From an uncultured Acidobacteriota bacterium (GTDB taxonomy: Bacteria > Acidobacteriota > Vicinamibacteria > Vicinamibacterales > CAVVIG01), in NCBI GenBank assembly GCA_963780685.1, contig CAWACZ010000006.1:38683-102682 (forward strand): 64,000 nt of DNA, given 5' to 3'. The stretch's first letter is position 1. Each line of letters opens with the position of its first letter. The position numbers and the translations under genes are program-made. A model generated the notes under the pieces. It made no database searches and had not been told where the DNA came from. It worked only from the letters and a program-made list of their open reading frames with translations. Of the stretch, positions 4,455 through 53,335 are shown in pieces.

Positions 4455-5006
4455 TTGAGAGCCATGGATTCGGATTTCCATTTTGGACCAGCTCGAAGAG
4501 GCGAGCAGACCGTGTACGGCGCTCGGATGCCTGACCGATCGTTGACCAGCATCTTGGAGTGGGCCAACTTCATGCGCAGTCAGGGTGTGACCCGAGTATG
4601 CTGCCTCCTCGACGATGGGCAGGTGGCTGATTTCCCGGTCAGCCTCGAGGCTGAGTACAAAAAGCTGTTCGGCGCAGCCCGCATTCTGATGCAGCCAATC
4701 GCCGACCATCATCTCTGCTCAGGGCAAGTGCTCAACGACAACATCCTGCCATTCCTGCGCGCTGCCGACATGGGCGGTGAACGCGTGGTCGTCCATTGCT
4801 GGGGCGGCAACGGCCGGACCGGTCACGTGCTCGCGGCGTGGCTCGTTGCGGCACGAGGGCTGCCGCCGCCGGAGGCCATTGAGGCAGTGGAAGCAGCCGG
4901 ACGACTGCCGCGGGAGGCCATTCTGGCAGGCAACGCGGTGCTTGACGAGTTGATGGAACTGCTGACGAGCTGCAGACCTGACACGCAACGCAGTCCGAGA
5001 GCGTGA
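4455..5006 (+). CDS. dual-specificity/tyrosine phosphatase-like protein
   Basis: VVVHCWGGNGRTGHVLAAWL matches the HCx5R(S/T) P-loop of Cys-based phosphatases. Confidence 0.7.
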   Translation: MRAMDSDFHFGPARRGEQTVYGARMPDRSLTSILEWANFMRSQGVTRVCCLLDDGQVADFPVSLEAEYKKLFGAARILMQPIADHHLCSGQVLNDNILPFLRAADMGGERVVVHCWGGNGRTGHVLAAWLVAARGLPPPEAIEAVEAAGRLPREAILAGNAVLDELMELLTSCRPDTQRSPRA

Positions 5007-5077
5007 GACGTCGGCCCGCAATCGTAATCGCGGCAACTCAAGAACGGATATCCAAGGTGGAGGCCGGAGGAGCCATC

Positions 5078-6095
5078 ATGAGTCGAGTGTTCCTAATCGC
5101 TCTTGTCCTGCTGGCGACGACCGAGACCACGTGGACGCAGCAGCCACGGACGCACGATCTGCGTCTGGCGCCCGAGCACATACACTGGGGCTACTACGAT
5201 GCGCGTGTGCCGCCAGTACCTGCGGATCGGTTCCGGCGACCGCGTACGGGTCGAAACGATGGTCGCGGGCGGACTGCAGCGGGTCAGGTTGGCGGGCATC
5301 AGCGAGTCTGAGATTCCGGAGGCTCTGAAGACCATCGAGCTGCGTGTCACCGAGCGGGGTCCCGGGGCGCATCCATTGACCGGACCGATCCTGGTCGAGG
5401 GCGCCGAGCCCGGTGACGCGCTCGAAATACGTATTCTGGCGATCGAGTTTCTACATCCGTTCGGCGTCGTTGCATTCAGTCCCGGCGGCGGCGTCATTCC
5501 AAGTGACTTTCCCTACGCGCATTTCCGGCTGCTGCGCTGGCAGCTCGGTTCGGACCGCGTCGAGTTCGGTTCCAGCGTCTCGCTCAGGCTCGCGCCTTTC
5601 TTCGGCTCGATTGGGGTCGCACCACCGCCGCTCGTCGGCAGAATCTCGAGCCGGCCGCCAGCGTGGCATGGTGGCAATCTCGACAACAAGGATCTCGTGG
5701 CGGGGTCTACTTTGTATCTGCCCGTGCACGTGCCAGGTGCCCTCCTTTCGATCGGCGACGGCCACGGCATGCAGGGTGATGGCGAAGTGACGGGCACGGC
5801 CCTGGAGACGTCGCTTCGGGGCACATTCGAGGTGCGCGTTCGCAAGGGTCAGCGGCTGCGCTGGCCCCGTGCGGAGACCCCAACGCACTACATCAGCATG
5901 GGACTCGACGAGGATCTCGACGAGGCGACACGACTCGCCACTCGTGAACTGGTCGAGTTTCTCGTCGCGGAGAAAGGGCTGTCACGGGACGATGCGTACG
6001 TGTTGTGTTCCCTGGCGGCCGATCTGCACGTGACGCAGGCTGTTGATCAGACGAAGGGCGTGCACGCGACGATCGCGAAGTCGCTCTTCAAGTAG
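5078..6095 (+). pseudogene. acetamidase/formamidase family protein with signal peptide, one +1 frame disruption
   Basis: The signal peptide and N-terminus (MSRVFLIALVLLATTE...HIHWGYYDARVPPV) lie in the frame of ORF 5003..5311. The rest (LRIGSGDRVRVETM...GDGHGMQGDGEV...) lies in ORF 5103..6095. The switch is at gtacc 5216-5220. Confidence 0.8.
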
Positions 6096-6098
6096 CGG

Positions 6099-7145
6099 TT
6101 GGTTTTCCTTCCAATCCTTTCGATCGGTTGCATATCACATGTGACTTATACGACCTCCGATCGCATTGCTGGCTGCCTGAAGGGCATCGCCGCCGGGGAT
6201 GCCGTCGGCAAGCAAACGGAGATGCTCTCGCCCGAGAACGTGCGGCGTTGGTATCCGCACGGAATCCGAGGCTTCGAGGGACCGCCCGGCGCCATCATTC
6301 CTCGATACGTGGGCAATTCAAGACACGAGTGGCGGATCGGCGAGACCACGGATGACACCGAGCGGACCGTTGCTGTTGCTCGAGCGATCATTGCCGAACG
6401 TCGTGTGTCGCATGAAAGCATCGGTCGGGAAATGCTTGGATGTACCAAATGCGTGCATCCCGGTGTGCAATCGTTGTGGGAGTTTCACCAAGCCGCCGAT
6501 CCCATGCGGATCGCAACGACCCACGACGGGTGTGGGGCAGCGATTCGTGTGGCGCCCGTTGGCATCTTCTATCGTTCGGACTGTTTGGACGAATTGGTGA
6601 GTGGCGCCCGCGAGGCATCCATCTCGACACACGGCGGCTCGTTGGCTATCGCTGCCGCCGCAGCGACTGCCGCAGCGGTTTCGGCAGCCATCGATGCAGT
6701 CCCTCAGCATCAGATTCTCGAGCTTGCCGGGCGGGCCGCGACGATGGCAGAGATCCGATGGTCGGGCCGAGCCGCGGTCGTTTTCGCGACCGCCCTGCGC
6801 GCCGTGCACGAAGACCTGGCCAGCTTACCTGCACTGCAAGCACAAGAAGTGGCAGCGCGCTGCTTTCCGGATCGGCCGCTGACGATCGTGCCCTTGGCGC
6901 TGGCGCTCGCCGCGCTCCTGCCGTCGGCGGAAACCGCGATTCTTCTGGCCGCGAACATCGGTGGAGACAGCGATTCGGTCGCCTCTGTTGCCGGCGGGAT
7001 TCTCGGGGCGCTGCACCCGTCCACGGTCAATCAACGCTGGCACGAGGTCGTCGAACGCGTCAACGAGCACGACCTTGTGGCCCTTGCCGGAGAACTTGCC
7101 TCGCTCCGACGCGGATGTTCAGATTCGGGAATCCGTGGCGCCTGA
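6099..7145 (+). CDS. ADP-ribosylglycohydrolase family protein
   Basis: N-terminal DRIAGCLKGIAAGDAVGKQTE and C-terminal NIGGDSDSVASVAGGILGA are typical ARH metal-site blocks. The real start may be GTG 6141. Confidence 0.85.
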   Translation: MVFLPILSIGCISHVTYTTSDRIAGCLKGIAAGDAVGKQTEMLSPENVRRWYPHGIRGFEGPPGAIIPRYVGNSRHEWRIGETTDDTERTVAVARAIIAERRVSHESIGREMLGCTKCVHPGVQSLWEFHQAADPMRIATTHDGCGAAIRVAPVGIFYRSDCLDELVSGAREASISTHGGSLAIAAAAATAAAVSAAIDAVPQHQILELAGRAATMAEIRWSGRAAVVFATALRAVHEDLASLPALQAQEVAARCFPDRPLTIVPLALALAALLPSAETAILLAANIGGDSDSVASVAGGILGALHPSTVNQRWHEVVERVNEHDLVALAGELASLRRGCSDSGIRGA

Positions 7146-9903: not shown

Positions 9904-9913
9904 ACAGGTGAGT

Positions 9914-10012: not shown

Positions 10013-10082
10013 CAACACGTCGGCGGCAGGCGACTACAATGATCGCGTAGGTCACGTGCGGGACCTTGGCAGGGAGACTTCA

Positions 10083-11055
10083 ATGATGCGTGCCTGGCAG
10101 ATGAGGGCGATGGTCGCGGCGGTGGTTGCGGTGTCCGTGTCGTCGTGTGCGCGGCAGGTGGAGGGCGACCGTATCGCCGTCTTCACAAAGAACCAGACCA
10201 ATCCCTTTTTCCAAACAGTGCGTCTTGGCGCGGACAGCGCAGCCAGGCAGATGAAGGCGACCGTCGTGCACTACATTCCCACGCAGCCGGACAGCATCCC
10301 TGAGCAGATGAGCCAGATCGAAGATGTCGTCACCAAGCGTCCGAGTGCAGTGGTCTTTATTCCCGTCGACTCGAAGGCCATGGTTCCCGGCGTGCAGAAG
10401 ATGAACGCTGCCGCCATTCCGGTCGTCAACATCGTCGACCATTCACTAGGAGGAGAGCTCCTGAGCTGGGTGGGCTCCGATCGAGTACAGCATGGGGCTG
10501 CTGACCGGGCGGTACCTGCTGCAGAAGATGAACGGCCAGGGCAACGTCATCATCATCGAGGGAGTGCGCGGATCGCTCGGAAGCAACGAACGAGTGCGCG
10601 GCTTCCAGAAAGCACTCGAGGAATTCCCTCAGGCCAAGCTCCTTTCCTCGCAACCCGGAAACTTCCAGCGGCTTCAGGCGCTGCAGGTGACCGAAAACCT
10701 GCTGCAGGCGCACCCGGTGGTCGATGGCATCATGGCCGCCAATGACGCCATGGCCCTCGGGGTGATCGAAGCCTTGGACGCGACGAACCGAAAAGCGCTC
10801 GTTGTCGGCCTCAACGGGACGAAGGAAGCGATCGACGCCATCAAAGCGGGCAAGCTCCTGGCGTCTGGAGAGTTCAACGGCTACTTGCAGGGCTGCATCG
10901 GCACGATGGCCGCCATTCGCCACGTTCGCAAGTTGCCGGTCCCGAAGTCCTTCAGCTTCCCGCCGCGCGTCATCGACAGCACCAACTACCATGGGCTGGA
11001 TGTACCGGAATCGGAGCGCGAGTGCCCCGAATGGGAGACGGTGATTAAGGGATAG
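10083..11055 (+). pseudogene. sugar ABC transporter periplasmic binding lipoprotein (ribose-binding-like), one +1 frame disruption
   Basis: Lipobox VSVSSC. The N-lobe is in ORF 10056..10745 up to SWVGSD. The remainder (MGLLTGRYLL...NVIIIEG...GIMAANDAMALG) is in ORF 10492..11055. The switch is near 10480-10490. Confidence 0.85.
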
Positions 11056-11163
11056 GGGCTGGGGGATAGGGGCTGGGGACTAGGGGCTGGGGGCTAGGGG
11101 CTGGGGGCTGGGGGCAGGGGCTGGGCTGGGTAGAGCTGGGGGCAGAGGCTGGGCGGGCTGGGC
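11052..11163. repeat. G-rich tandem heptamer/14-mer array (TAGGGGC TGGGGGC)n
   Basis: Direct reading: gataggggctggggg ataggggctgggg actaggggctggggg ctaggggctggggg... The first TAG (11053-55) is the stop codon of the upstream gene. Confidence 0.9.
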
Positions 11164-11164
11164 T

Positions 11165-11312
11165 TAAAGCATTTTCCGGTTGTACGTAGTGGGGAAAAAA
11201 GGCGCGAGAAGAGACGCTACCGCACGCTCCAGCCTTCAGGCGGACAGCCGCTGAAGGAGGTGTCGGCTGGCGAAAAGCCGGAATCGACGCGTCACACGGC
11301 AATGGAAACCGC
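11165..11312. mobile_element. small MITE-like element, copy 1 (~148 bp)
   Basis: It shares its termini taaagcattttccggttgtacgtagtg ... cacggcaatggaaaccgc, and the internal gccttcaggcggacagccgc, with 52631..52730. Confidence 0.7.
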
Positions 11313-11363
11313 CCAGTGAGAGTTAGAGGCGGACAGTAGCGAAGTGAACAGAGGGCAAAGAAT

Positions 11364-11548
11364 ACCGGACGAGGCTAGTTGAACTGAACGATGAGCAAGT
11401 TGGTAAGACCGCGCGCAGCGAAGCGTGAACGGAGCGCGGGTTCGGGTCGACGTGACGGCCGACGCGCAGCTGACGACCTCCGCGTGTCGGCTCTCGGCGC
11501 ACATGTGGCCAACGCTCAGCCGCACAAGCTTTCGGCTCATTGAATTTG
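11364..11548 (-). mobile_element. solo arm (~185 nt) of the foldback element
   Basis: Aligns by eye to 13535..13722 and, inverted, to 52449..52640 (...caagttggtaagaccgcgcgc...gggtcgacgtgacggcc...ggccaacgctcagc...ggctcattgaattt). It ends 7 nt before the stop of the gene at 11555. Confidence 0.75.
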
Positions 11549-11554
11549 AAGGTG

Positions 11555-12535
11555 CTAGGCGAACAGCGATGGTTGGCCGCCTGTGTGCCAGAAGAGGATC
11601 GTTTCCCGCGCTCCGAACCGTCCTGTCCGGATGTAGTCGATCAAGCCGGCCATCGCCTTTCCGGTATAGACAGGGTCGAGGAAAAACCCTTCGGTCCTCG
11701 CTGCGAGCTGAATCGCGTCTCGCGCCGCGGCCGTAGGCCGGCCGTATCCCGCCCCGACGTAGTCGCCGTCGACCACCGTTGGAACGCCGCCTCCGAGCGA
11801 GGCGGGATCGGCGCCGAGCAAGCTCGCCACTCCGGCGACGTTGTGTTCGATCTGCGTCCGTATGGCGCCGACCTGTTCGTCGGCGCTGATTCCGATGATG
11901 CCGGTCTGGAGCCCGAGAAGGCGGCACGCAGCCACGAGGCCCGCCTGTGTTCCGCCCGATGACGTTGCATGGACGATGACGTCGGGAGCGGGGACTTGCT
12001 CGAGGAGCTCGAGCATCGCCAGGGCGAAAGCGCAGGCACCGAGCGGCGTCGAACCACCAACAGGAATGACGAACGGGCGGCGGCCGGCACGACGCAGACG
12101 CTCGGCTGCGTCGTCCATGGCCCGATTGCGCGCCTCGCGCGAATCGACGAAGACGACCTCGGCGCCCAGCAACTCGTCGAGCAGCGCGTTGCCGGACGGG
12201 GCCGCCGGCCGCGGGCCGCTGAGCACGAGAACGGCCTTCATGCCCAGCATCGCCGCCGCTGCCGCAGTGACGCGCGCGTGGTTCGACTGGATTGCCCCCG
12301 CCGTCACGAGCGTGTCGGCGCCTTCCCGCTGCGCGGCCGCGGCGAGCAGCGCGAGCTTGCGGACCTTGTTGCCCCCAAACGCGAAATCGAGCACGTCGTC
12401 GCGTTTGACGAGAAGACTGGGTCCGCCGCCGATTGCGTTCGACAGCCGCGTCATCGGCAGCACCGGTGAAGGGCGCGATGCGAGCGGGACGCGTGGAATA
12501 CGGGATGCCGCAGCGCGGAGCTCGTCGATGGTCAC
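11555..12535 (-). CDS. PLP-dependent D-cysteine desulfhydrase / ACC deaminase family protein
   Basis: KRDDVLDFAFGGNKVRKLALL (the GGNKxRKL motif), then TAGAIQSNHARVTAAAA, and family-like sequence along the full 326 aa. Confidence 0.9.
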   Translation of the reverse strand: MTIDELRAAASRIPRVPLASRPSPVLPMTRLSNAIGGGPSLLVKRDDVLDFAFGGNKVRKLALLAAAAQREGADTLVTAGAIQSNHARVTAAAAAMLGMKAVLVLSGPRPAAPSGNALLDELLGAEVVFVDSREARNRAMDDAAERLRRAGRRPFVIPVGGSTPLGACAFALAMLELLEQVPAPDVIVHATSSGGTQAGLVAACRLLGLQTGIIGISADEQVGAIRTQIEHNVAGVASLLGADPASLGGGVPTVVDGDYVGAGYGRPTAAARDAIQLAARTEGFFLDPVYTGKAMAGLIDYIRTGRFGARETILFWHTGGQPSLFA

Positions 12536-12566
12536 GTCATCATCTTATTTCGGTGGACGCGATCTT

Positions 12567-12971
12567 TCATGAATTCCACGGCAGTCGACGACCGCTGCGG
12601 CGCAAAATCAGCGCGCGGAGTATCTCATACAGCAGGTCCGCTGCCGGTGCAGAGTTCAGCAGAAACGAATCAGCACCCGCCCGGTGTGCTGCTTCACGCT
12701 CTTCGGGAGCTGACGCGACGATAATCGACGCCGCGTGATCGGCCAAACCGCGCAACTCGGGCACGATCGATCCGCTGTCGTGAACCGACGCGATCACTAC
12801 CACAACCTCTGGTGTAATCTGCTGAAAGTAGTCCACTGCTTTGGCAAGTTCTCGGCAGTGATAGACAATCAGTCCATTCGCGCGCAACAGGTCGACATCG
12901 GCGAGCTGCGATCTGTCGCTTTCCAGCAATAAAACAGTCCCGCGCATCTGGTGGCCATGACATTTTCGCAC
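12567..12971 (-). CDS. receiver-like (CheY-fold) protein lacking the canonical phospho-acceptor Asp and conserved Lys
   Basis: Receiver-like beta/alpha pattern: TVLLLESD...PEVVVVIASVHDSG...SIIVASA...GADSFLLNSAP. Ile/Ala sits where the phospho-Asp is expected and Asn where the Lys is expected. Confidence 0.55.
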   Translation of the reverse strand: MRKCHGHQMRGTVLLLESDRSQLADVDLLRANGLIVYHCRELAKAVDYFQQITPEVVVVIASVHDSGSIVPELRGLADHAASIIVASAPEEREAAHRAGADSFLLNSAPAADLLYEILRALILRRSGRRLPWNS

Positions 12972-13061
12972 CGCTGCCGCGCCGCAACGAGTGGCCCGGG
13001 CCCGATGCGCGCCGCATCCGTGGCGTGCGATTCAGGTTGGCGGTGCATGGCGACAGCAAAT

Positions 13062-13735
13062 GCTAATGCCGTTCTGAAATTCGTGGCCGACCGCACAACG
13101 GTCAGCTGAGCGACGCGACCCGCGGCCGGGAAGCATCTCGGGCCGTCGCGCCGTTTCCGTCAGCCCGAAAAACGGCGTTACGCTCGCTTTCCTTCCGCTG
13201 GCGCGACCGTCCTACTGCTTCGCGGCATCGCTCCGATCAACGACTACCGCCTCGGGCAACGCCTTGGTCCGAGTGACCTCGCGGCAGACGGCCGCGCAGG
13301 ACTCGGCTTCACGCCGTTTTTCCTGCACGGTGGCGGGCTGACTCCAAACGGCGCGCCGCCCGAGACGCTTCCCGCCAGTGCCCGGAGCCGAGGACGGTGA
13401 TGCGGAGGGTCGTCGGCTGGCGCAAGGGCCGTGAAGTCGAACCGTCACGCTTCAGGAAAACCCGCGCGCAGTGAGTTCCGTCGCGGCGGTCTTTCACGAT
13501 GTCACCCGAGGGCCCCAAGCATCCCGGACGGGGCTAGTTGATCTGAGCGATGCCGCAAGTTGGTAGGACCGCCGCGCAGCGATAGAGTGGCGAACGGAGC
13601 GCGGGTTTTCCGGGTCGACGATGACGGCCCGACGCGCCAGCTGACGGCCCTCCGCCGTGGCGCCAAATGCGGCCAACGCTCAGCAGCACAAGCTTTCGGC
13701 TCATTGAATTTCCGACAGGCATGGCAATGCCTGCT
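13062..13735 (-). mobile_element. foldback element, full copy (~670 bp), inverted relative to the copy at 52.4 kb
   Basis: Ends are taatgccgttctgaaattc (13064) and gaatttccgacaggcatggc (13706). The interior is collinear with the reverse complement of 52432..53224, minus the nested insertion. Confidence 0.8.
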
Positions 13736-13802
13736 GTTGAGCGGTCATCGTCACCAACGACCGTCCACCCACATTGATGCGCGCAGGAAGCGACGTAAGT
13801 AT

Positions 13803-15443
13803 TCACGATCTCATGAGGAGCCGACGGAACACCTCGTCGAGGGCTGCTTTCGGGCGTTGCGAGGTGGTCTTGGCCCGCCACGCGACAAAGCCGTCGGGTC
13901 GGATGAGTACCGCCCCTGAAGGCATCAGACCGTAGGCGGCCGCGAACTCACCCTGAGGAGCCGCGAGGTCTGGTCCGCCCACCAGGTGCGTGTCCAGCTC
14001 GAGTCCTGTGAAATCTCCGGCGCTCGCTCGCGCAGCATCAATCCACGTGGCGCCTTCGGCACCAGCGAGGAGCACGAACGAGCGGCCGAACAGATCGATG
14101 GTCGACGTCCTTTGCCCACGCCATTCGAGCCACATGTGCGGAGCACGCGAGCCGGGCCGGCCGTGCGATTCGTGCGGGCTCTCGTGTCCCCGATCCAGGT
14201 CGTCTTCCGAGACGATGGCTTCGGAGCGATACAGATACCCGAGCTCGATGTGGAAATCGTCGACCTGGGGCTGATAGTCCTTCGCGCCCAGGTAGGTCGC
14301 AGAACGGGTTACGTAGCGTGTGTACGCCTGCTCGACGGTGAACTTGCCGACCGGCTTGCGCTCCGCCTCGTAGGTTTCGAGTAACTCGCCGCCTGCGACG
14401 CCTTTCAGCACCAGCGCCAGCTTCCACGCCAGGTTATGGCCGTCGTGAATGCCCGTGTTGCCGCCGTATCCACCGTTTGGTGGCATCAGGTGTGCCGAGT
14501 CGCCGGCCAGAAAAACCCGCCCGTCGCGAAAGCGCCGTGCGACATCGGAGGTCGCCCTCCAACGCGCCACGCCGTCGATCGTCACCGGCAGATCGGGAAC
14601 GCCTGCGCCTGCGCGAACCAGCTCGATGAGACGCTCCTGGCGAACATCGGATGCAGGGCTTGCGGCCTCGGGGCGTGACGTGTCGCCGGCTGTATTGACG
14701 ACGAGAAAGCCGGAATTCTGGTCCTTGTCGAGGCGGAAGAAGCCCGCCAGCACCGAATTGGTGACGTAGATGACGCTCAGGTTCTTGCCGACGAGCAGCG
14801 GCGCCACCGGGGCATGGAAATAGATCGTGATGCTGTTCGAGAACACGCCGCGGCCGTCGAACTCGATACCGGCGAGTTCCCGCACCCGGCTGTGGGCGCC
14901 GTCCGCGCCGACGAGGTACTTGGCCCGCAGCCGACGCTCCGTGCCGGTGTCGAGCTCCTTCACTGTCGCGGTGATGCTGCTTCCATCCTGCTCGATTCCG
15001 ATGACCTCCGTTCCCTCCATGACGCGGGCGCCCGCCTGTTCCGCTCGCGCCCGGAGAATCGGTTCGAGGCCGGGTTGAGTGATGAACAGCCGGCGACACG
15101 GGCTCAGCGCGTCGACGCCCTCGTTGAGGCTGGGAATGAAGCCGGCGATTTGCTTACCGGCAAGGGAGTCCATCAGTACGACGGCCCCCTCCGGTTCGAA
15201 TTCTTTCAGCGACTGGCGGCGCACCTCGGGCTCGATGCCGGCCGAGCGGAAGAGCTCGAGCGTTCGCATGTGAAAAAATGCCGCGCGCGGAACGGGCGAC
15301 CCTCCACGCAGGCGTTCGACGGCAAGGGAGGCAATGCCGTGTTGCGCCAGGAACATGGCGGTCGACAAGCCGACCAGGCCACCACCCGCGATGAGGACGG
15401 GAGCATCCATCTCGATTCCGGCCGAGTCGCCGTGTCCACTCAT
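13803..15443 (-). CDS. FAD-dependent aromatic-ring monooxygenase (PheA/TfdB-type)
   Basis: VLIAGGGLVGLSTAMFLAQHGI dinucleotide fold. GDSAHLMPPNGGYGGNTGIHDGHNLAWKL FAD/substrate block. ~150-aa C-terminal thioredoxin-like extension. Confidence 0.9.
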   Translation of the reverse strand: MSGHGDSAGIEMDAPVLIAGGGLVGLSTAMFLAQHGIASLAVERLRGGSPVPRAAFFHMRTLELFRSAGIEPEVRRQSLKEFEPEGAVVLMDSLAGKQIAGFIPSLNEGVDALSPCRRLFITQPGLEPILRARAEQAGARVMEGTEVIGIEQDGSSITATVKELDTGTERRLRAKYLVGADGAHSRVRELAGIEFDGRGVFSNSITIYFHAPVAPLLVGKNLSVIYVTNSVLAGFFRLDKDQNSGFLVVNTAGDTSRPEAASPASDVRQERLIELVRAGAGVPDLPVTIDGVARWRATSDVARRFRDGRVFLAGDSAHLMPPNGGYGGNTGIHDGHNLAWKLALVLKGVAGGELLETYEAERKPVGKFTVEQAYTRYVTRSATYLGAKDYQPQVDDFHIELGYLYRSEAIVSEDDLDRGHESPHESHGRPGSRAPHMWLEWRGQRTSTIDLFGRSFVLLAGAEGATWIDAARASAGDFTGLELDTHLVGGPDLAAPQGEFAAAYGLMPSGAVLIRPDGFVAWRAKTTSQRPKAALDEVFRRLLMRS

Positions 15444-20240: not shown

Positions 20241-20432
20241 CAGCTTCCAGCTCCCAGCTTTCAGCTCTCAGCAAGTAGCGCAGGCCCTCAGGCCTGCTTG
20301 CGACGGGCAGCCCTGACCAGCCTCCGCCAAGGCTACGGCGGTCCGCCGAAGCTTCAGCGAAGGCGGAAGGGCTGCGTTACGTCGGCGCGATTTCTTCACA
20401 GGGTCTGAGAGCTGGCAGCTGGAAGCTGGCAG
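20241..20432. repeat. composite palindrome: heptamer array, 106-nt REP/MITE-like core, inverted heptamer array
   Basis: Left array (cagcttc cagctcc cagcttt cagctct cagcaag) at 20241-75. Core gtagcgcag...ctgcgttac at 20275-20380. Right array (ctgagag ctggcag ctggaag ctggcag) at 20405-32. It fills the gap between two convergent genes, so it is a bidirectional terminator candidate. Confidence 0.85.
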
Positions 20433-20852: not shown

Positions 20853-20938
20853 GGAAATGTTCCCTTTTCACCAAAAAGTCTATCGCAGCTTCGACCGCGG
20901 CCTCTTGCAGCGCAGGCCTTTAGGCCTGCCTCTTCGAA

Positions 20939-23190: not shown

Positions 23191-24694
23191 ATGTCGACTG
23201 TGACTGCACCCGCTCTCGTGCAATACAAGATGTACATCGGCGGCGAGTGGGTGGATAGCGAGTCGGGCCAGAGCTTCGAGAGCGACAATCCCTACACCGG
23301 CCGGCCTTGGGCACAGATCCCTCGGGGGACGGCCGCTGATGCCGACCGCGCCGCCCGAGCGGCGCATCATGCGTTCACTTCCGGCGATTGGCCGAAGCTG
23401 ACGCCGTCGCGTCGGGGCGCGCTTCTTCGTCGGCTCGGCGACCTGGTGGCCGATCGGTCGAAGGCGCTCGCTGAAATCGAGGTACGCGACAACGGCAAGC
23501 TGTACGCCGAAATGCACGGGCAGGTCGCGTACATGGCCCACTGGTTCCACTATTACGCAGGTCTGGCCGACAAGATCGAGGGTTCGGTCATTCCCCTCGA
23601 CAAGACCGACTACCTCAACTACACGCGCCTCGAACCTCTCGGCGTCGTGGCGGCCATAGTCCCCTGGAATTCTCCGTTGCTGCTCGCCGCGTGGAAGCTT
23701 GCTCCCGCGCTCGCGGCCGGCAATACCGCAGTCATCAAGCCGTCCGAGTACACATCCGCGTCGATTCTCGATTTCATGAAGCTGGTCGAAGATGCCGGCT
23801 TTCCGCCCGGCGTCGTGAACGTCGTGACCGGCTTCGGGACCGAGGTCGGCATGCCGCTGGTCGAGCATCCGCTCGTGGCCAAGGTGGCGTTCACCGGATT
23901 CTGACGCGACCGGCCAGCGGATCTACGAAGCGGCGGCGCGCGGGATGAAGCGGGTCACGATGGAGCTCGGTGGCAAGTCGCCGAACATCGTCTTCGAGGA
24001 CGCGGATCTTGACGATGCGGTCAAGGGAGTCGTGTCGGGTATTTTGGCGGCCACCGGTCAAACGTGCGTCGCCGGTTCGAGACTCCTTCTCCAGGACACC
24101 GTTCACGATCGATTCGTCGAGAAGCTGGTCGCGTTGTTCAGGACCGCCAAGATGGGCGACCCAATGAGCCCGCAGACACAGATAGGGCCGATCGCCAACA
24201 GACCTCAGCTCGAGAAGATCTTGAAGTACATCGAGATCGCCAAAGGCGAGAATGCCACGCTCGTTCTGGGTGGGGGCCGCGCCTCTCGACCCGAATGCGG
24301 AGATGGCTGGTTCGTCGAGCCGACGATCTTCGATGGCGTGAAGAACAGCATGCGCATTGCACAGGAAGAGGTGTTTGGTCCCGTACTGTCGGTGCTTACG
24401 TTCAAGGACGAGGACGAAGCCGTCGCTGTCGGGAACGACGTCGCCTATGGCCTTGCGGCTGGAGTGTGGACGCAAAACATCCGCCGCGCCCTGACCATGG
24501 CGGCGCGGCTTCAGGCCGGGACCGTCTGGGTGAATACGTATCGCGCCAATAGCTGCATGTCGCCGTTCGGAGGCTACAAGCGGTCGGGATTCGGGCGCGA
24601 AGGCGGGAAGGACATGATCTACGAATACCTGCAGACGAAGAGCGTTTGGATCTCGACCGCGACGGACGTACCGAATCCGTTCGTGCAGCGCTAG
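23191..24694 (+). pseudogene. NAD(P)-dependent aldehyde dehydrogenase, one +1 frame disruption
   Basis: ORF 23191..23904 ends ...HPLVAKVAFTGF*. The next frame continues SDATGQRIYEAAARGMKRVTMELGGKSPNIVF...GQTCVAGSR. The FTGS motif is restored by removing one nt at 23898-23900. Confidence 0.9.
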
Positions 24695-24838
24695 AGGCTG
24701 GAGGCTAGAGGCTGGAGGCTCGGGGCTACTAAGTAGCGCAGCCCTTCCGCCTTCGCTGAAGCTTCGGCGGACCGCCGTAGCCTTGGCGGAGGCTGGTCAG
24801 GGCTGCCCGGCGAAGCAGGCCTTAAAGGCCTGCGCTAC
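24691..24838. repeat. heptamer array (CTAGAGG CTGGAGG)n followed by the 106-nt REP/MITE-like core in inverted orientation
   Basis: The array at 24691-24732 contains the TAG stop (24692-94). The core at 24733-24838 is the near-exact reverse complement of 20275-20380. Confidence 0.85.
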
Positions 24839-49663: not shown

Positions 49664-52325
49664 ATGACTACGGAAATCCGAATGGAACAGATTGGGCCGT
49701 ACCAGATTGAGGCCAAGCTGGGAGAAGGCGGCATGGGCGTGGTGTTTCGCGCGCTCGACACCAAGCTGCAGCCGGCCGGTCGCGATCAAGTTTCTCTCCG
49801 AGCACCTCGCCGACGCGGCCGGCCGGCGCCGGTTCCAGCGAGAAGCGCAAATGGCGTCCTCGCTGAATCATCCCCACATTCTTACGGTTCACGACATCGG
49901 CGAACTCGACGGCCGCCAGTACCTGGTCACCGAATATATCGACGGAGGCACGCTGAAGGACTGGGCGAGTGGCGGGAAGCGCACGTGGCGGGAGATCGTC
50001 GAGCTTCTGGTGGGCGTGGCCGATGGCCTGGCCACAGCCCATGCCGCCGGCATTCTGCATCGCGACATCAAGCCTGAAAACATCCTGATTACCACCACCG
50101 GATATGCCAAGCTCGCCGACTTCGGCCTGGCGAAAGTCGCAGACGTTGCCTCACCCGATGCGGCCACCCGTCCGGAAGGAGCAACCAGGCCGGGCGTCGT
50201 GGTCGGCACCATTGCCTACATGTCTCCGGAGCAAGCATCGGGAGGGCCGCTGGATGCCCGCAGCGACATCTTCTCGTTCGGCGTGGTGCTCTACGAAATG
50301 CTCGCGCGGCGCAAACCGTTTGCCGCTGCCACGGAGTTGGAGCTTCTGCACACGATCATCCACGGGAAGCCGCGACCGCTGGGCAACGATGTCTTCCCGG
50401 GGCTCCGAGCCGTTGTGGAAAAAGCACTGGAGAACGATCCACGCGACCGCTATCAGTCGATGCGGGAGATGCGTGGTGGATCTGCGTCGTCTCATCCGGC
50501 AGAGCGAGGAGATCCATTTACCTGCGGCGCCGGTTCAGGCACGCGCCTGGAAGCGGATCGCCGTTGTAGCCGGCCTCACCGCGATCCTGGTGGCGACCCT
50601 TGGGATCTGGCTATGGATGCGTCCATCCGAGCAGCCCGCATCGCCCTCGGAGTGGGTGCAGCTGACGAACTTCCCCGATTCCGTGACCCAACCCGCGCTC
50701 TCTTCAGACGGGCGCATGCTGACGTTCATCCGCGGGCCGAGCTCGTTCATCACGACAGGGCAGGTCTACGTGAAGCTGCTGCCGGACGGCGAGCCAAAGC
50801 CGTTGACTGACGACGACCTGACCAAGATGAGCCCCGTGTTTTCCCGGACGGATCTCGCATCGCCTACACCACCAGCAGCCCATGGGACACGTGGGTCGTC
50901 CCGGTGTTGGGCGGAGCGCCGCGACGATGGCTGCCGAACGCATCGGGGCTGGTGTGGAGCGGCCGGCGCAGCATCGTGTTTTCGGAGGTCGTCGACCGTC
51001 TCGAAGGCAACCACATGAAGGTGGTCGCAGCCGAAGAAAGCCGGGCAGGGCAACGCGACGTGTATGTGCCATCGCCGAAAGGTGCGATGGCGCACCGGTC
51101 GTTTCCATCACCGGACGGCAAGTGGTTGATTTTGGCCGAAATGACCGACAGGGGCGTGTGGCTTCCATGCCGCCTGGTGCCTGAAGACGGCAGCTCGATT
51201 GGACAGCCGATCGGCCCGCCCGACGCGGCGTGCTGGTTTGCCGCGTGGACACCAGACGGCAAGTGGATGTACGTCAGCTCGAACACCGGCGCCGGAACAT
51301 TTCACATCTGGCGCCAGCGTTTCTCGGCGAGCGGCTCCTCCTCGGCTCCCGAGCAGGTGACGTCAGGCCCGACGAGCGAAGAGGGCATCGCGATGGCGTC
51401 GGACGGCCGTTCGTTCATCACGGCCGTTGGCTTGGACCAGAGCGCCGTCTGGGTTCACGACTCGCGAGGGGAGCGGCAAATCTTCGTCGAAGGCCGCGCG
51501 TCTACGCCCAAGTTCAGCCCTGATGGCAAGACGCTGTTCTTCGTGGCTCAGAAGGGAACCTTCAACGAGCTTTGGTTCGCGGACGTCGCCTCAGGTCGTG
51601 CCGAGGCCCTGCTGCCGAATTTCGCCCTCGGATCCGGCGGGGTCGCAGGGGTCTACGATGTTTCTCCCGACGGCCGCCAGATCGTCGTGCAGGCCCGCGA
51701 TGTCGAAGGCAAAGACCGTGTCTGGCTTGCTCCCGTCAACCGGCGCTCGCCGCCTCGACCGATACCGAACGTGGAGGGTGATGGTCCGGTCTTTGGACCA
51801 GACGGAGAGATCTTCTTCAGGGCCAGGGAAGGGGACTATGGATTCGCGTATCGCGTGCGCGAGGACGGAAGCGGTTTGCGAAAAGCGATTGATTACCCCG
51901 TTATCGAGACAGGGAGCGTTTCCCGGGATGGCAAATGGCTCGTCAGCTATGCACGCTACGCGCGAGCCGGTGAAGAGCCCATGGGCGCCACGGTAGCGTT
52001 CCCGCTGGACGGCGGGCCCGCCAAGCGAATCTCCCCTCCCGGCAGCCCGCTGAGTTGGTCGCCAGACGGGAGGTTCCTGTTCCTGTCGGACTCGACCTCG
52101 TCGTATGGCGGGAGTGTGAGACGCACGTATGTGATTCCGCTGCCGTCGGGCCGTATCTGGCCGGAGATGCCGGCTGACGGCTTTCAGACGGCGTCGGACG
52201 TCGCGAAACTATCCGGTGTGCGTGTGATCGACGAGGCTTCTGTGGTGCCCGGTCCAACAGCGGACGTGTATACGTTCTCGCGCGAGACGATCCAGCGTAA
52301 CTTGTATCGCATTCCTATACGGTGA
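49664..52325 (+). pseudogene. Ser/Thr protein kinase, TM segment, TolB-like beta-propeller; three frame disruptions
   Basis: The N-terminus ...IGPYQIEAKLGEGGMGVVFRALDTKLQ is followed by three frame changes (at ~49770, ~50470 and ~50845). The segments after each change read RPVAIKFL...HRDIKPENIL...DFGLAK...YQSMREM, then VVDLRRL...TM...DGRMLTF...KMSPVFS, then PDGSRIAYT...PDGKW repeats. Confidence 0.85.
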
Positions 52326-52422
52326 GAGGTGATTAAGCGATCCGAGTCGCAGCACCGTCTCGGTGCCCCGGCGACCGTTTTGGAGGGCCGATGGCGCTGA
52401 CTCCAGGCAGCGGCCGAATACA

Positions 52423-53233
52423 GGCCCAAAAGGTAATGCCGTTCGGAAATTCAATGAGCCGAACGCTTGTGCTGCTGAGCGTTGGCCACATTTGGCGCCG
52501 AGGGCCGACACGGCGGAGGGTCGTCAGCTGGCGCGTCGGGCCGTCACGTCGACCCGGAAAACCCGCGCTCCGTTCGAAACTCTGGCGCTGCGCGGCGGTC
52601 TTACCAACTTGCGGCATCGCTCAGATCAACTAAAGCATTTTCCGGTTGTACGTAGTGTCCGCCTTCAGGCGGACAGCCGCGAAGTCCGGCTAAAGCCGGA
52701 CACTACGTACTACACGGCAATGGAAACCGCTCTAGCCCCGTCCGGGAGGCTTGGGGCCCTCAGGTGACCTCGCGAGAGACCGCCGCGAACTCACTCACTG
52801 CGCGCGGGTTTTCCTGACGCGTGACGGGTCGACTTCACGGCCCTTGCGCCAGCCGACGACCCTCCGCCGTCTCCTGTTCCCCCAGCCGCCCGCGACGGCT
52901 CGGAGCCGTGGCGGGAAGCGTCGCGGGCCGCGCGCCGTTTGGAGTCAGCCCGCCACCGCTGCCGGAAAAACGGCGTGAAGCCGAGGCCTGCGCGGCCGTC
53001 TGCCGCGAGGTCACCCGGACCGAGGCGTTGCCCGAGGCGGGACTCGTTGATCGGAGCGATGTCGCGAATCAGCAGGACGGCCGCGCCAGCGAAAGGGCGG
53101 CGAGCGCAACGCCGTTTTTCGGGCTGACGGAACCGGCGCGACGGCCCGCGATGCTTCCCGCCGCGGGTCGCGGCGCGCCACTGACCGCTGTGCGGTCAGT
53201 CACGAATTTCCGAACGGCATTACCCTTTAGGGC
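52423..53233 (+). mobile_element. foldback element, full copy with nested MITE (~0.8 kb)
   Basis: Perfect 21-bp terminal inverted repeats: ggtaatgccgttcggaaattc (52432-52) and gaatttccgaacggcattacc (53204-24), with imperfect extension to ~30 bp. The interior consists of four ~55-65-nt related units in + - + - orientation. Confidence 0.85.
52631..52730. mobile_element. small MITE-like element, copy 2 (100 bp), inserted inside the foldback element
   Basis: Absent from the otherwise collinear copy at 13.5 kb (empty site ...gatcaactagcccc...). A 14-bp perfect stem gtacgtagtgtccg/cggacactacgtac encloses two further hairpins. Confidence 0.8.
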
Positions 53234-53335
53234 TGCTTGGTCGGCGGGCGCGGGCAGGCCTGAAGGCCTGCGCTACAAAAGGCCGCGGTTACGAGAGGCC
53301 GCGGCGACGTCAGCTTCTGCAGCCAGCGCCGATCG

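Follow-up and report, generated by a model that had tools for sequence, protein, structure and literature searches.

Among the repeats in a 64,000-nucleotide stretch of DNA from an uncultured Acidobacteriota bacterium (Vicinamibacterales; contig CAWACZ010000006.1 of assembly GCA_963780685.1, positions 38,683 to 102,682; hereafter the window) is an element of ~660-690 bp that is very probably a noncoding, nonautonomous miniature transposon with inverted repeats (MITE) whose terminal inverted repeats (TIRs) are the sites of an IS4-family DDE transposase. The family is previously undescribed and of a well-known kind, and it is unusual in its size, in its inverted-duplicate body, and in its nesting with REP elements (repetitive extragenic palindromes). 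An initial annotation, made from the letters of the window alone, had left two alternatives for this element, a nonautonomous transposon or a large structured RNA that is mobile. The first of these stands, given IS4-type ends, the lack of coding sequence, multiple copies and a presence that varies between relatives; the second does not, for reasons discussed below.

Terminal repeats and an insertion sequence with the same ends

The best preserved copy, copy C, runs from TIR to TIR at 52432..53224 (+) and measures 793 bp, or 691 bp without a nested insertion that it gained later; its core ends, TAATGCC...GGCATTA, lie at 52434-53222, which leaves 687 nt once the insert is removed. The right TIR (53204..53224, −) is the perfect reverse complement, 21/21, of the left TIR GGTAATGCCGTTCGGAAATTC (52432..52452, +). 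This 21-mer is exact at those two places and recurs with 2 mismatches at 13062-13082, where the chance expectation in the window is none. The perfect 21-bp repeats had been recognized in the initial annotation; the outer limits drawn around them, 52423-53233, were 9 nt too wide and correspond to an imperfect extension of the inverted repeat (52421-52452 / 53204-53235; 32 nt, 91%). Its second copy, described as collinear and inverted with degenerate ends, and its solo arm near a stop codon were both recovered by blastn of the element against the window, which also returned several self-palindromes. Copy B (13064..13724, −), 661 bp long, is a complete MITE that shares 87-89% identity with copy C (87% between 52732-53228 and 13537-13058, 89% between 52436-52632 and 13722-13535), and its left end is degenerate (CCATGCCTGTCGGAAATTC). 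The solo arm (11364..11547, −) is a decayed fragment of the element's left third, 86% identical to 52447-52646, that lacks the outermost ~13 nt of the TIR, carries several 1-3-nt deletions and breaks off ~25 nt past an internal CTAG site. Copy B has decaying ends, and the solo arm is a dead fragment. None of the copies codes for protein, as had been supposed: no open reading frame (ORF) of the element has a Pfam match, frame-breaking 1-nt indels separate the copies, and the database "proteins" that derive from other copies are domain-less hypotheticals.

The ends of the element tie it to an insertion sequence (IS). Representative genome contigs were scanned with the terminal-repeat 19-mer TAATGCCGTTCNGAAATTC, which gave 31 loci, mostly chance matches in unrelated phyla; the real ones are three ISs (L006, L011 and L019) and four repeats in Verrucomicrobia (L012, L021, L023 and L027). 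In L019, a metagenome-assembled genome (MAG) of the Acidobacteriota, two inverted matches to the 19-mer lie 1.45 kb apart and bound an IS at 4915-6364. Its ORF of 447 aa matches the NCBIfam model transpos_IS4_1 (NF033592, "IS4 family transposase") with 135.5 bits against a cut-off of 115 and the Pfam model DDE_Tnp_1 (PF01609) with 39.3 bits against 23, and its translation shows a YREK-like motif, Y-x2-R-x3-E-x6-K (YASRWEHELYFREVK). Homologues of this transposase stand beside the same ends in L011 (Acidobacteria, 85% identity) and L006 (Vicinamibacteria, 70%). In all three loci the 19-nt right end of the IS, TAATGCCGTTCGGAAATTC, is identical to both ends of copy C, where it forms the last 19 nt of the left TIR. 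The left end of the IS, TAATGCCTTTCGGAAATTC, is one base off (G8T). Two MITE copies from metagenomes, L042 and L033, carry the T of the IS left end at their own left ends, consistent with descent from an element that had the left IS end on one side and the right IS end on the other. Within the 64-kb window itself, tblastn with the IS transposase found no homologue.

The four verrucomicrobial loci belong to one MAG, JAHEOI01, in which the 19-nt terminal sequence occurs on four contigs (L012 2561-2903; L021 4777; L023 1311; L027 1486). At L012 2561-2903, IS-type ends enclose an element of ~343 bp with an unrelated interior, and the sharing of the 19-mer by this element implies that the IS lineage gave short derivatives more than once. 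These loci suggest that related IS4-type ends and short derivatives are present in another phylum.

Dispersed copies, probable target context and an empty site

Further copies were found by translating a spurious ORF of the element (52821-53240) and using it as a protein query, which matched 13 domain-less "hypothetical proteins." Contigs with these proteins gave L040, L041, L042, L039 and L038, and the contig of a close relative gave L033 and L034, which makes seven copies from soil metagenomes, with unrelated gene neighbors in each case. Three of them are full length (L040 at 91-93% identity, L042 at 89-92% and L041 at 85-89%), L039 is a partial copy broken at the CTAG site, and three end their contigs (L038, L033 and L034), as is expected of a multicopy repeat. 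With two full copies and one fragment in 64 kb and seven copies elsewhere, the family spans 661-687 bp (793 bp with the insert), and the 19-nt ends are recognizable in copy B, L040, L041 and L042. None of the PLSDB plasmids was matched by the element in blastn, and a scan of metagenome contigs with a 20-mer from the arm gave one AT-rich chance match (L032) only.

A difference in presence between close relatives comes from L033/L034, where a contig of a close relative, with genes 86-89% identical in DNA to those of the window, ends inside a copy. The L033 element lies 7-9 nt from GGGCTGCCCGTCGCAAGCAGGCC, and the orthologous site in the window, 20275-20400, has a REP pair and no element. The junction reads GGCATTGCC followed by TGAAAAGGGGCTGCCCGTCGC in L033 and ...GGAGGC followed by TGGTCAGGGCTGCCCGTCGC in the window, so that the two sequences become homologous again where the terminal repeat ends. 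An empty counterpart of the copy C site was sought through DUF1501 homologues (88-89% identical), and their downstream neighborhoods are not syntenic with the flank of copy C.

REP hairpins recur at the insertion points of both the IS and the MITE. On both sides of the L019 IS lies a perfect 10-bp direct repeat, GCCTAAAGGC, that is the top of a GTAG-REP hairpin: removal of the IS and one repeat leaves GCCCGGCC-TAAA-GGCCGGGC and then CTAC, which on the opposite strand forms a REP hairpin with a GTAG tag. After the L011 IS comes CCCTAAAGGGCTGCGCTAC, again half of a REP-type hairpin. At copy C the right flank (53225..53276) consists of a REP half-stem (CCCTTTAGGGCTGC) and then a complete GTAG-type REP at 53254-53276 (GCAGGCCTGAAGGCCTGCGCTAC), and this flank would represent the target context. 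The L033 MITE is followed by GGGCTGC...GCAGGCCTGAAGGCCTGCGCTAC, L042 is preceded by GTAGCGCAGCCC, and L040 is embedded among tandem REPs and has CCTAAAGGC on either side, the right one offset by 8 nt; REP halves thus abut the ends in copies C, L040, L033 and L042 in addition to the IS copies L019 and L011. Direct repeats at the MITE copies are degenerate. They are CCTAAAGGC at L040, GGTT(T)CGGC at L041, CCTTC(G)CAC at L042 and GCATT(T)G at copy B, the last three being 7-9 nt long with one or two differences, and the range over the family is ~7-10 nt. ISRm22, also of the IS4 family, provides a precedent for REP targeting (PMC1525189). Conservation of the flanks among C, L039 and L040 raised the idea of a larger mobile unit, which was rejected: what these flanks have in common is REP sequence, present at 20275-20313 and 24800-24838 without the element.

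In the mechanism that we propose, the 19-21-bp TIRs would be the binding and cleavage sites of the DDE transposase of the 1.45-kb IS4-family IS. Supplied in trans, this enzyme would excise the MITE by cut and paste at TAATGCC...GGCATTA, and reinsertion would follow with a target duplication of 9-10 bp, preferably in or beside the loop of the GTAG-type REP hairpins that follow genes. Cut-and-paste transposition is the mechanism of the IS4 family as known from Tn5 and Tn10.

Several observations weigh against a MITE mobilized in this way. Beyond the 19-nt ends, its interior has no DNA or protein similarity to the IS. The autonomous IS has been seen in other genomes only, host coverage being the 64-kb window, and the MITE was not seen in the IS-bearing MAGs within 8 kb around each IS. 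The family is rare in public data and must be narrow, since HMMER, run exhaustively over 1.84 billion representatives, gave 13 matches only. The filled and empty pair provided by L033 shows a single junction, as its contig runs out within the MITE. A clean target duplication is missing at copy C (CCCAAAAGG versus CCCTTTAGG, 6/9); the flanks of this copy are more like an extension of the palindrome, and a 6/9 match is not separable from the palindromy of a REP target. Lastly, mobility was inferred and not observed.

Some of the same observations would suit an immobile relic, either a deleted or rearranged IS remnant or a palindrome made by replication error, that was spread by segmental duplication and recombination. 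Copies that are 85-93% identical imply that none is recent, the target duplications are degenerate, the breaks in the solo arm and L039 fall close to one and the same CTAG site, and copy B and the solo arm border the stretch in which gene content is swapped relative to L033. We nevertheless regard such a relic as decidedly unlikely. The lack of DNA or protein similarity between the interior and the IS led to the rejection of an internally deleted IS as its source and equally speaks against the degraded remnant of a known IS whose discovery the initial annotation had named as a refutation. The copies lie in unrelated neighborhoods in several metagenomes, the boundaries of each coincide exactly with its terminal repeats, and the site filled in L033 is empty in the window with homology resuming at the end of the repeat. 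In addition, the TIRs of copy C agree at 21/21 positions while its halves are only ~69% alike.

Fold of the element as DNA or RNA

The body of the element is an old, imperfect inverted duplication of a ~345-nt half with one long hairpin per half, a feature of the whole element that the initial annotation had missed, together with a 102-nt foreign insertion in copy C. In the insert-free copy C, the left half and the reverse complement of the right half match at 244/353 positions, and the alignment score of 93 compares with -13 ± 7.5 for shuffles; copy B and L040 give the same picture. Tandem Repeats Finder reported no tandem array inside the element. Long hairpin 1 (52507..52873) has arms at 52507-52573 and 52797-52873 and holds the CTAG site of the nested insertion in its interior, long hairpin 2 (52903..53169) has arms at 52903-52976 and 53109-53169 and is the best conserved part of the family, and a self-palindrome occupies 52763-53015. 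All of these inverted units had been noted initially, as had the capacity for long helices in either nucleic acid. An inverted duplication would fold back into two long hairpins closed by the TIRs, and the predicted fold has two ~270-nt hairpins closed by the terminal repeats. For the insert-free element of 687 nt, the folding energy is -252 kcal/mol as DNA (z = -10.7 versus shuffles) and -429 kcal/mol as RNA (z = -10.4).

Covariation was assessed on five full copies with the minimum free energy structure of copy C, that is, a structure derived from one of five related sequences. Across these copies, 93.5% of the cells are paired. Changes on both sides were found at 9/255 pairs, compared with 4.1 ± 1.3 in shuffles (0/500 reach 9) and 1-3 in slid controls, and varying columns number 90/510 among the paired and 47/183 among the unpaired. 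Pairing is therefore kept somewhat above chance, for five related sequences and a structure taken from one of them. The 72 stem changes off the Watson-Crick consensus comprise 29 mismatches, 34 wobble or C-A changes and 9 compensated changes. If an RNA were read from one strand, wobbles should be tolerated there and not on the other strand. The wobble changes amount to 14 G-U on the plus strand versus 20 C-A (G-U on the minus strand; p = 0.39), and this strand symmetry fits a palindrome at the DNA level (selection on DNA hairpins or intrastrand repair) or slow neutral decay and gives no pointer to RNA. RNAalifold on seven copies, in a gap-ridden alignment that includes the partial copies, returned a covariation term that is a penalty (+10.8) and 2 compensatory pairs. 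A G-U pairing in one arm had been offered in the initial annotation as a weak hint of constraint on an RNA. The helix concerned, CTGAGCG/CGCTCAG, is kept in most copies, and in L033 the partner is CGCGCCG, with two positions broken without compensation; given this and the symmetry of the wobbles, the hint does not survive.

A large structured noncoding RNA, or a domain of one, whose gene was duplicated or mobilized and whose hairpins are kept for RNA function is accordingly very unlikely. Its very stable RNA fold, the high fraction of paired cells, the excess of pairs changed on both sides and the lower variability of paired columns are all what such an RNA would show, but the DNA fold is equally strong, as for any palindrome, the 9 compensatory pairs are as strand-neutral as the wobbles, and most of the 72 stem changes break pairs. 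The ends of the element are transposase sites common to an IS, and the copies lie in both orientations relative to neighboring genes. No sigma-70-like promoter or intrinsic-terminator pattern was found at the element. The Rfam scan suggested in the initial annotation returned 0 matches over the whole window at the gathering score, and a permissive scan assigned no family to the element either, giving only a chance miRNA-like match on the REP doublet and a sub-threshold match in the flank. The latter is to the Acido-Lenti-1 RNA motif (RF01687) at 53253-53303 (+), with 22 bits against a gathering score of 37 and E = 0.018; it lies outside copy C, covers the flanking REP hairpin and a second hairpin (GCCGCGG...CCGCGGC), and has no counterpart at the other REP copies.

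Whether the foldback itself serves a purpose is a separate question. Selection might keep it for transposition, or the host might have co-opted it as a bidirectional barrier or an RNA-stabilizing hairpin between convergent genes; both ideas are unlikely, and the sole hint of a selected foldback is the number of compensatory double changes in the stems (9 versus 1-3 in slid controls). In the transposition variant, intrastrand pairing would bring the two IS4-type ends together and so allow efficient mobilization of a large MITE.

REP hairpins and neighboring genes in the window

GTAG-type REP hairpins follow the pattern GTAG-N-(7-8 bp GC stem)-(3-5 nt loop)-stem, as in GTAGCGCAGGCCTTCAGGCCTGC, and number 7 in the window versus 1.8 in shuffles. 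Tagged hairpins lie at 20275-20297 (+), 24815-24838 (−), 53254-53276 (−), 52652-52675 (+) and 52684-52706 (−), with a variant at 20907-20929. The fourth and fifth of these form the inverted doublet that makes up the 102-nt insertion in copy C (52633..52734, +), which is located at the CTAG site with CTA on either side and is thus a REPIN-like doublet (REPIN, REP doublet forming hairpins). The insert is absent from four full copies (B, L040, L041 and L042) and is therefore secondary. A relative of it lies beside the solo arm at 11165..11312 (+), where 27 nt (11165-11191) are identical to 52631-52657. The GTAG form is thus found in the insert and in the flanking hairpin 53254-53276, and within copy C it is confined to the insert. 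It is scarcely credible that the 0.7-kb element is itself a composite of the REP or bacterial interspersed mosaic element (BIME) type, in which a REP-associated tyrosine transposase (RAYT), and not a DDE enzyme, would have spread clustered REP or REPIN hairpins, because, common as GTAG hairpins are around and inside it, inverted doublets as the insert and a 106-nt repeat in the window may be, and on record as GTAG REPs and RAYTs are (PMC3733652), the element's own long hairpins have no GTAG tag, the tagged ones belong to the secondary insertion, and its 19-21-bp TIRs are identical to the ends of a DDE IS and come with flanks resembling target site duplications (TSDs), neither of which RAYT/IS200-type elements have.

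The 106-nt repeat occurs at 20275-20380 (−) and 24733-24838 (+) with 90% identity. It is composed of GTAGCGCAGCCC, 57 nt with two small hairpins, GGGCTGC, a spacer and a second REP with its tag on the opposite strand, which makes it an inverted, REPIN-like doublet with an expanded loop; the orthologous site in L033 has the MITE beside it. Short arrays of 7/14-nt units (GGGCTAG/GGGCTGG, CAGCTTCCAGCTCC, GCTAGAGGCTGGAG) directly follow gene ends and adjoin REP hairpins at 11049-11122, 20241-20272 and 24690-24728, and the relative has the same kind at L033 320-380. Two independent copies, L039 and the solo arm, stop at the internal CTAG or no more than ~25 nt from it (L039 1-243 and, next to the solo arm, window 11313-11363). 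Copy C received its REP doublet at the same CTAG, where insertions or breaks may be especially frequent.

Copy C sits between the 3′ ends of two convergent genes, 50904-52325 (+) and 53336-... (−), copy B lies just past the 3′ end of a flavin adenine dinucleotide (FAD) monooxygenase gene (13803-15443, −), and the solo arm is 8 nt from the stop codon (11555) of a PALP-family gene. The flanking proteins (DUF1501, a PSCyt-type neighbor and a PD40/kinase protein) are of kinds usual in soil Acidobacteriota. For the FAD monooxygenase, the best homologues, at 90-95% identity, are from JGI soil metagenomes, and remoter named ones are from Vicinamibacterales and Acidobacteria MAGs.

The window and L033 differ in gene content around copy B. 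Window 11095-13868 comprises the solo arm, the PALP-family gene (11555-12535), an ORF without known identity (12567-12971) and copy B, and in its place L033 6886-9098 has a histidine-phosphatase gene and a beta-lactamase-fold gene. DNA homology to L033 stops at 13868, and the C-terminal ~20 residues of the FAD monooxygenase (13803-13868), a divergent tail that adjoins copy B, differ from the 531-aa orthologue in L033; the 546-aa form is also seen in two metagenome homologues (P0001 and P0002). A Peptidase_S51 gene present in L033 is missing between window positions 9904 and 10033. The gene for a periplasmic sugar-binding protein (10056-11055, +) consists of two overlapping ORFs, 10056-10745 and 10492-11055, that match the two halves of Peripla_BP_4; its orthologue in L033 (9138-10109) is one intact gene of 323 aa, and the split gene is a frameshift pseudogene or a sequencing error.

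Relation to known elements and meaning of the family

MITEs are defined by a length of 50-1000 bp, TIRs, TSDs, the absence of a transposase and multiple copies (PMC4596501). The element answers to this operational definition in that it is noncoding, shorter than 1 kb, shares its TIRs with an autonomous IS and has several dispersed copies; the evidence from TSDs and insertion polymorphism is partial. It resembles trans-mobilized bacterial MITEs in TIRs of 19-21 bp that are IS ends, in the lack of coding sequence, in a length of 660-790 bp, in dispersed intergenic copies, in degenerate TSD-like flanks, in a presence/absence difference between relatives, seen at one junction, and in strong secondary structure. 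In contrast to them, it is GC-rich and not AT-rich, falls toward the upper limit in size, has a body of an unrelated ~345-nt unit in inverted duplicate in place of an internal deletion of an IS, and has its partner IS in other genomes only. ISRm22 of Sinorhizobium meliloti is an IS4-family IS with all copies in REP elements (Tobes & Pareja 2006, PMC1525189). Our case shares the IS4-family affiliation of the partner transposase and the insertions in or beside REP hairpins, but ISRm22 is autonomous and belongs to an alphaproteobacterium, whereas the REP-associated element here is a noncoding derivative. Against a plasmid collection, the acidobacterial transposase shows no close kinship with ISRm22; its best matches are ~30% identical IS4-family transposases of Streptomyces, with no Sinorhizobium among the matches listed.

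Eukaryotic foldback (FB) transposons have very long terminal repeats made of tandem subrepeats. As in these, the whole element would fold back with its halves as inverted copies of each other; unlike them it has no tandem array, and the relation is one of analogy only. The REPIN concept reportedly goes back to Bertels and Rainey in 2011. RAYT-mobilized REPINs and GTAG-REP doublets (GTAG REPs are reviewed in PMC3733652) are matched by the 102-nt insert of copy C and the flanking hairpins, which are GTAG-tagged and form inverted doublets. The 0.7-kb element differs in having DDE-type TIRs and no GTAG hairpins, and it serves REPs as a target and host without being a REP itself.

The analysis defines a new MITE family and its likely IS4-family partner for Vicinamibacteria-like Acidobacteriota, a dominant and poorly cultured group of soil bacteria. 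Its practical value is modest, and it opens no new biological question. The repeat explains assembly breaks in these genomes, and its spurious ORFs have been deposited as "hypothetical proteins" in 12-13 clusters of public protein sets. In another phylum than that of ISRm22, it adds a second example of IS4-family elements that would home to REP hairpins, with selfish DNA in layers: the MITE sits in REP hairpins and itself contains a REP doublet. Because copy B and the solo arm flank a difference in gene content between close relatives, the family may also contribute to local rearrangement of these genomes.

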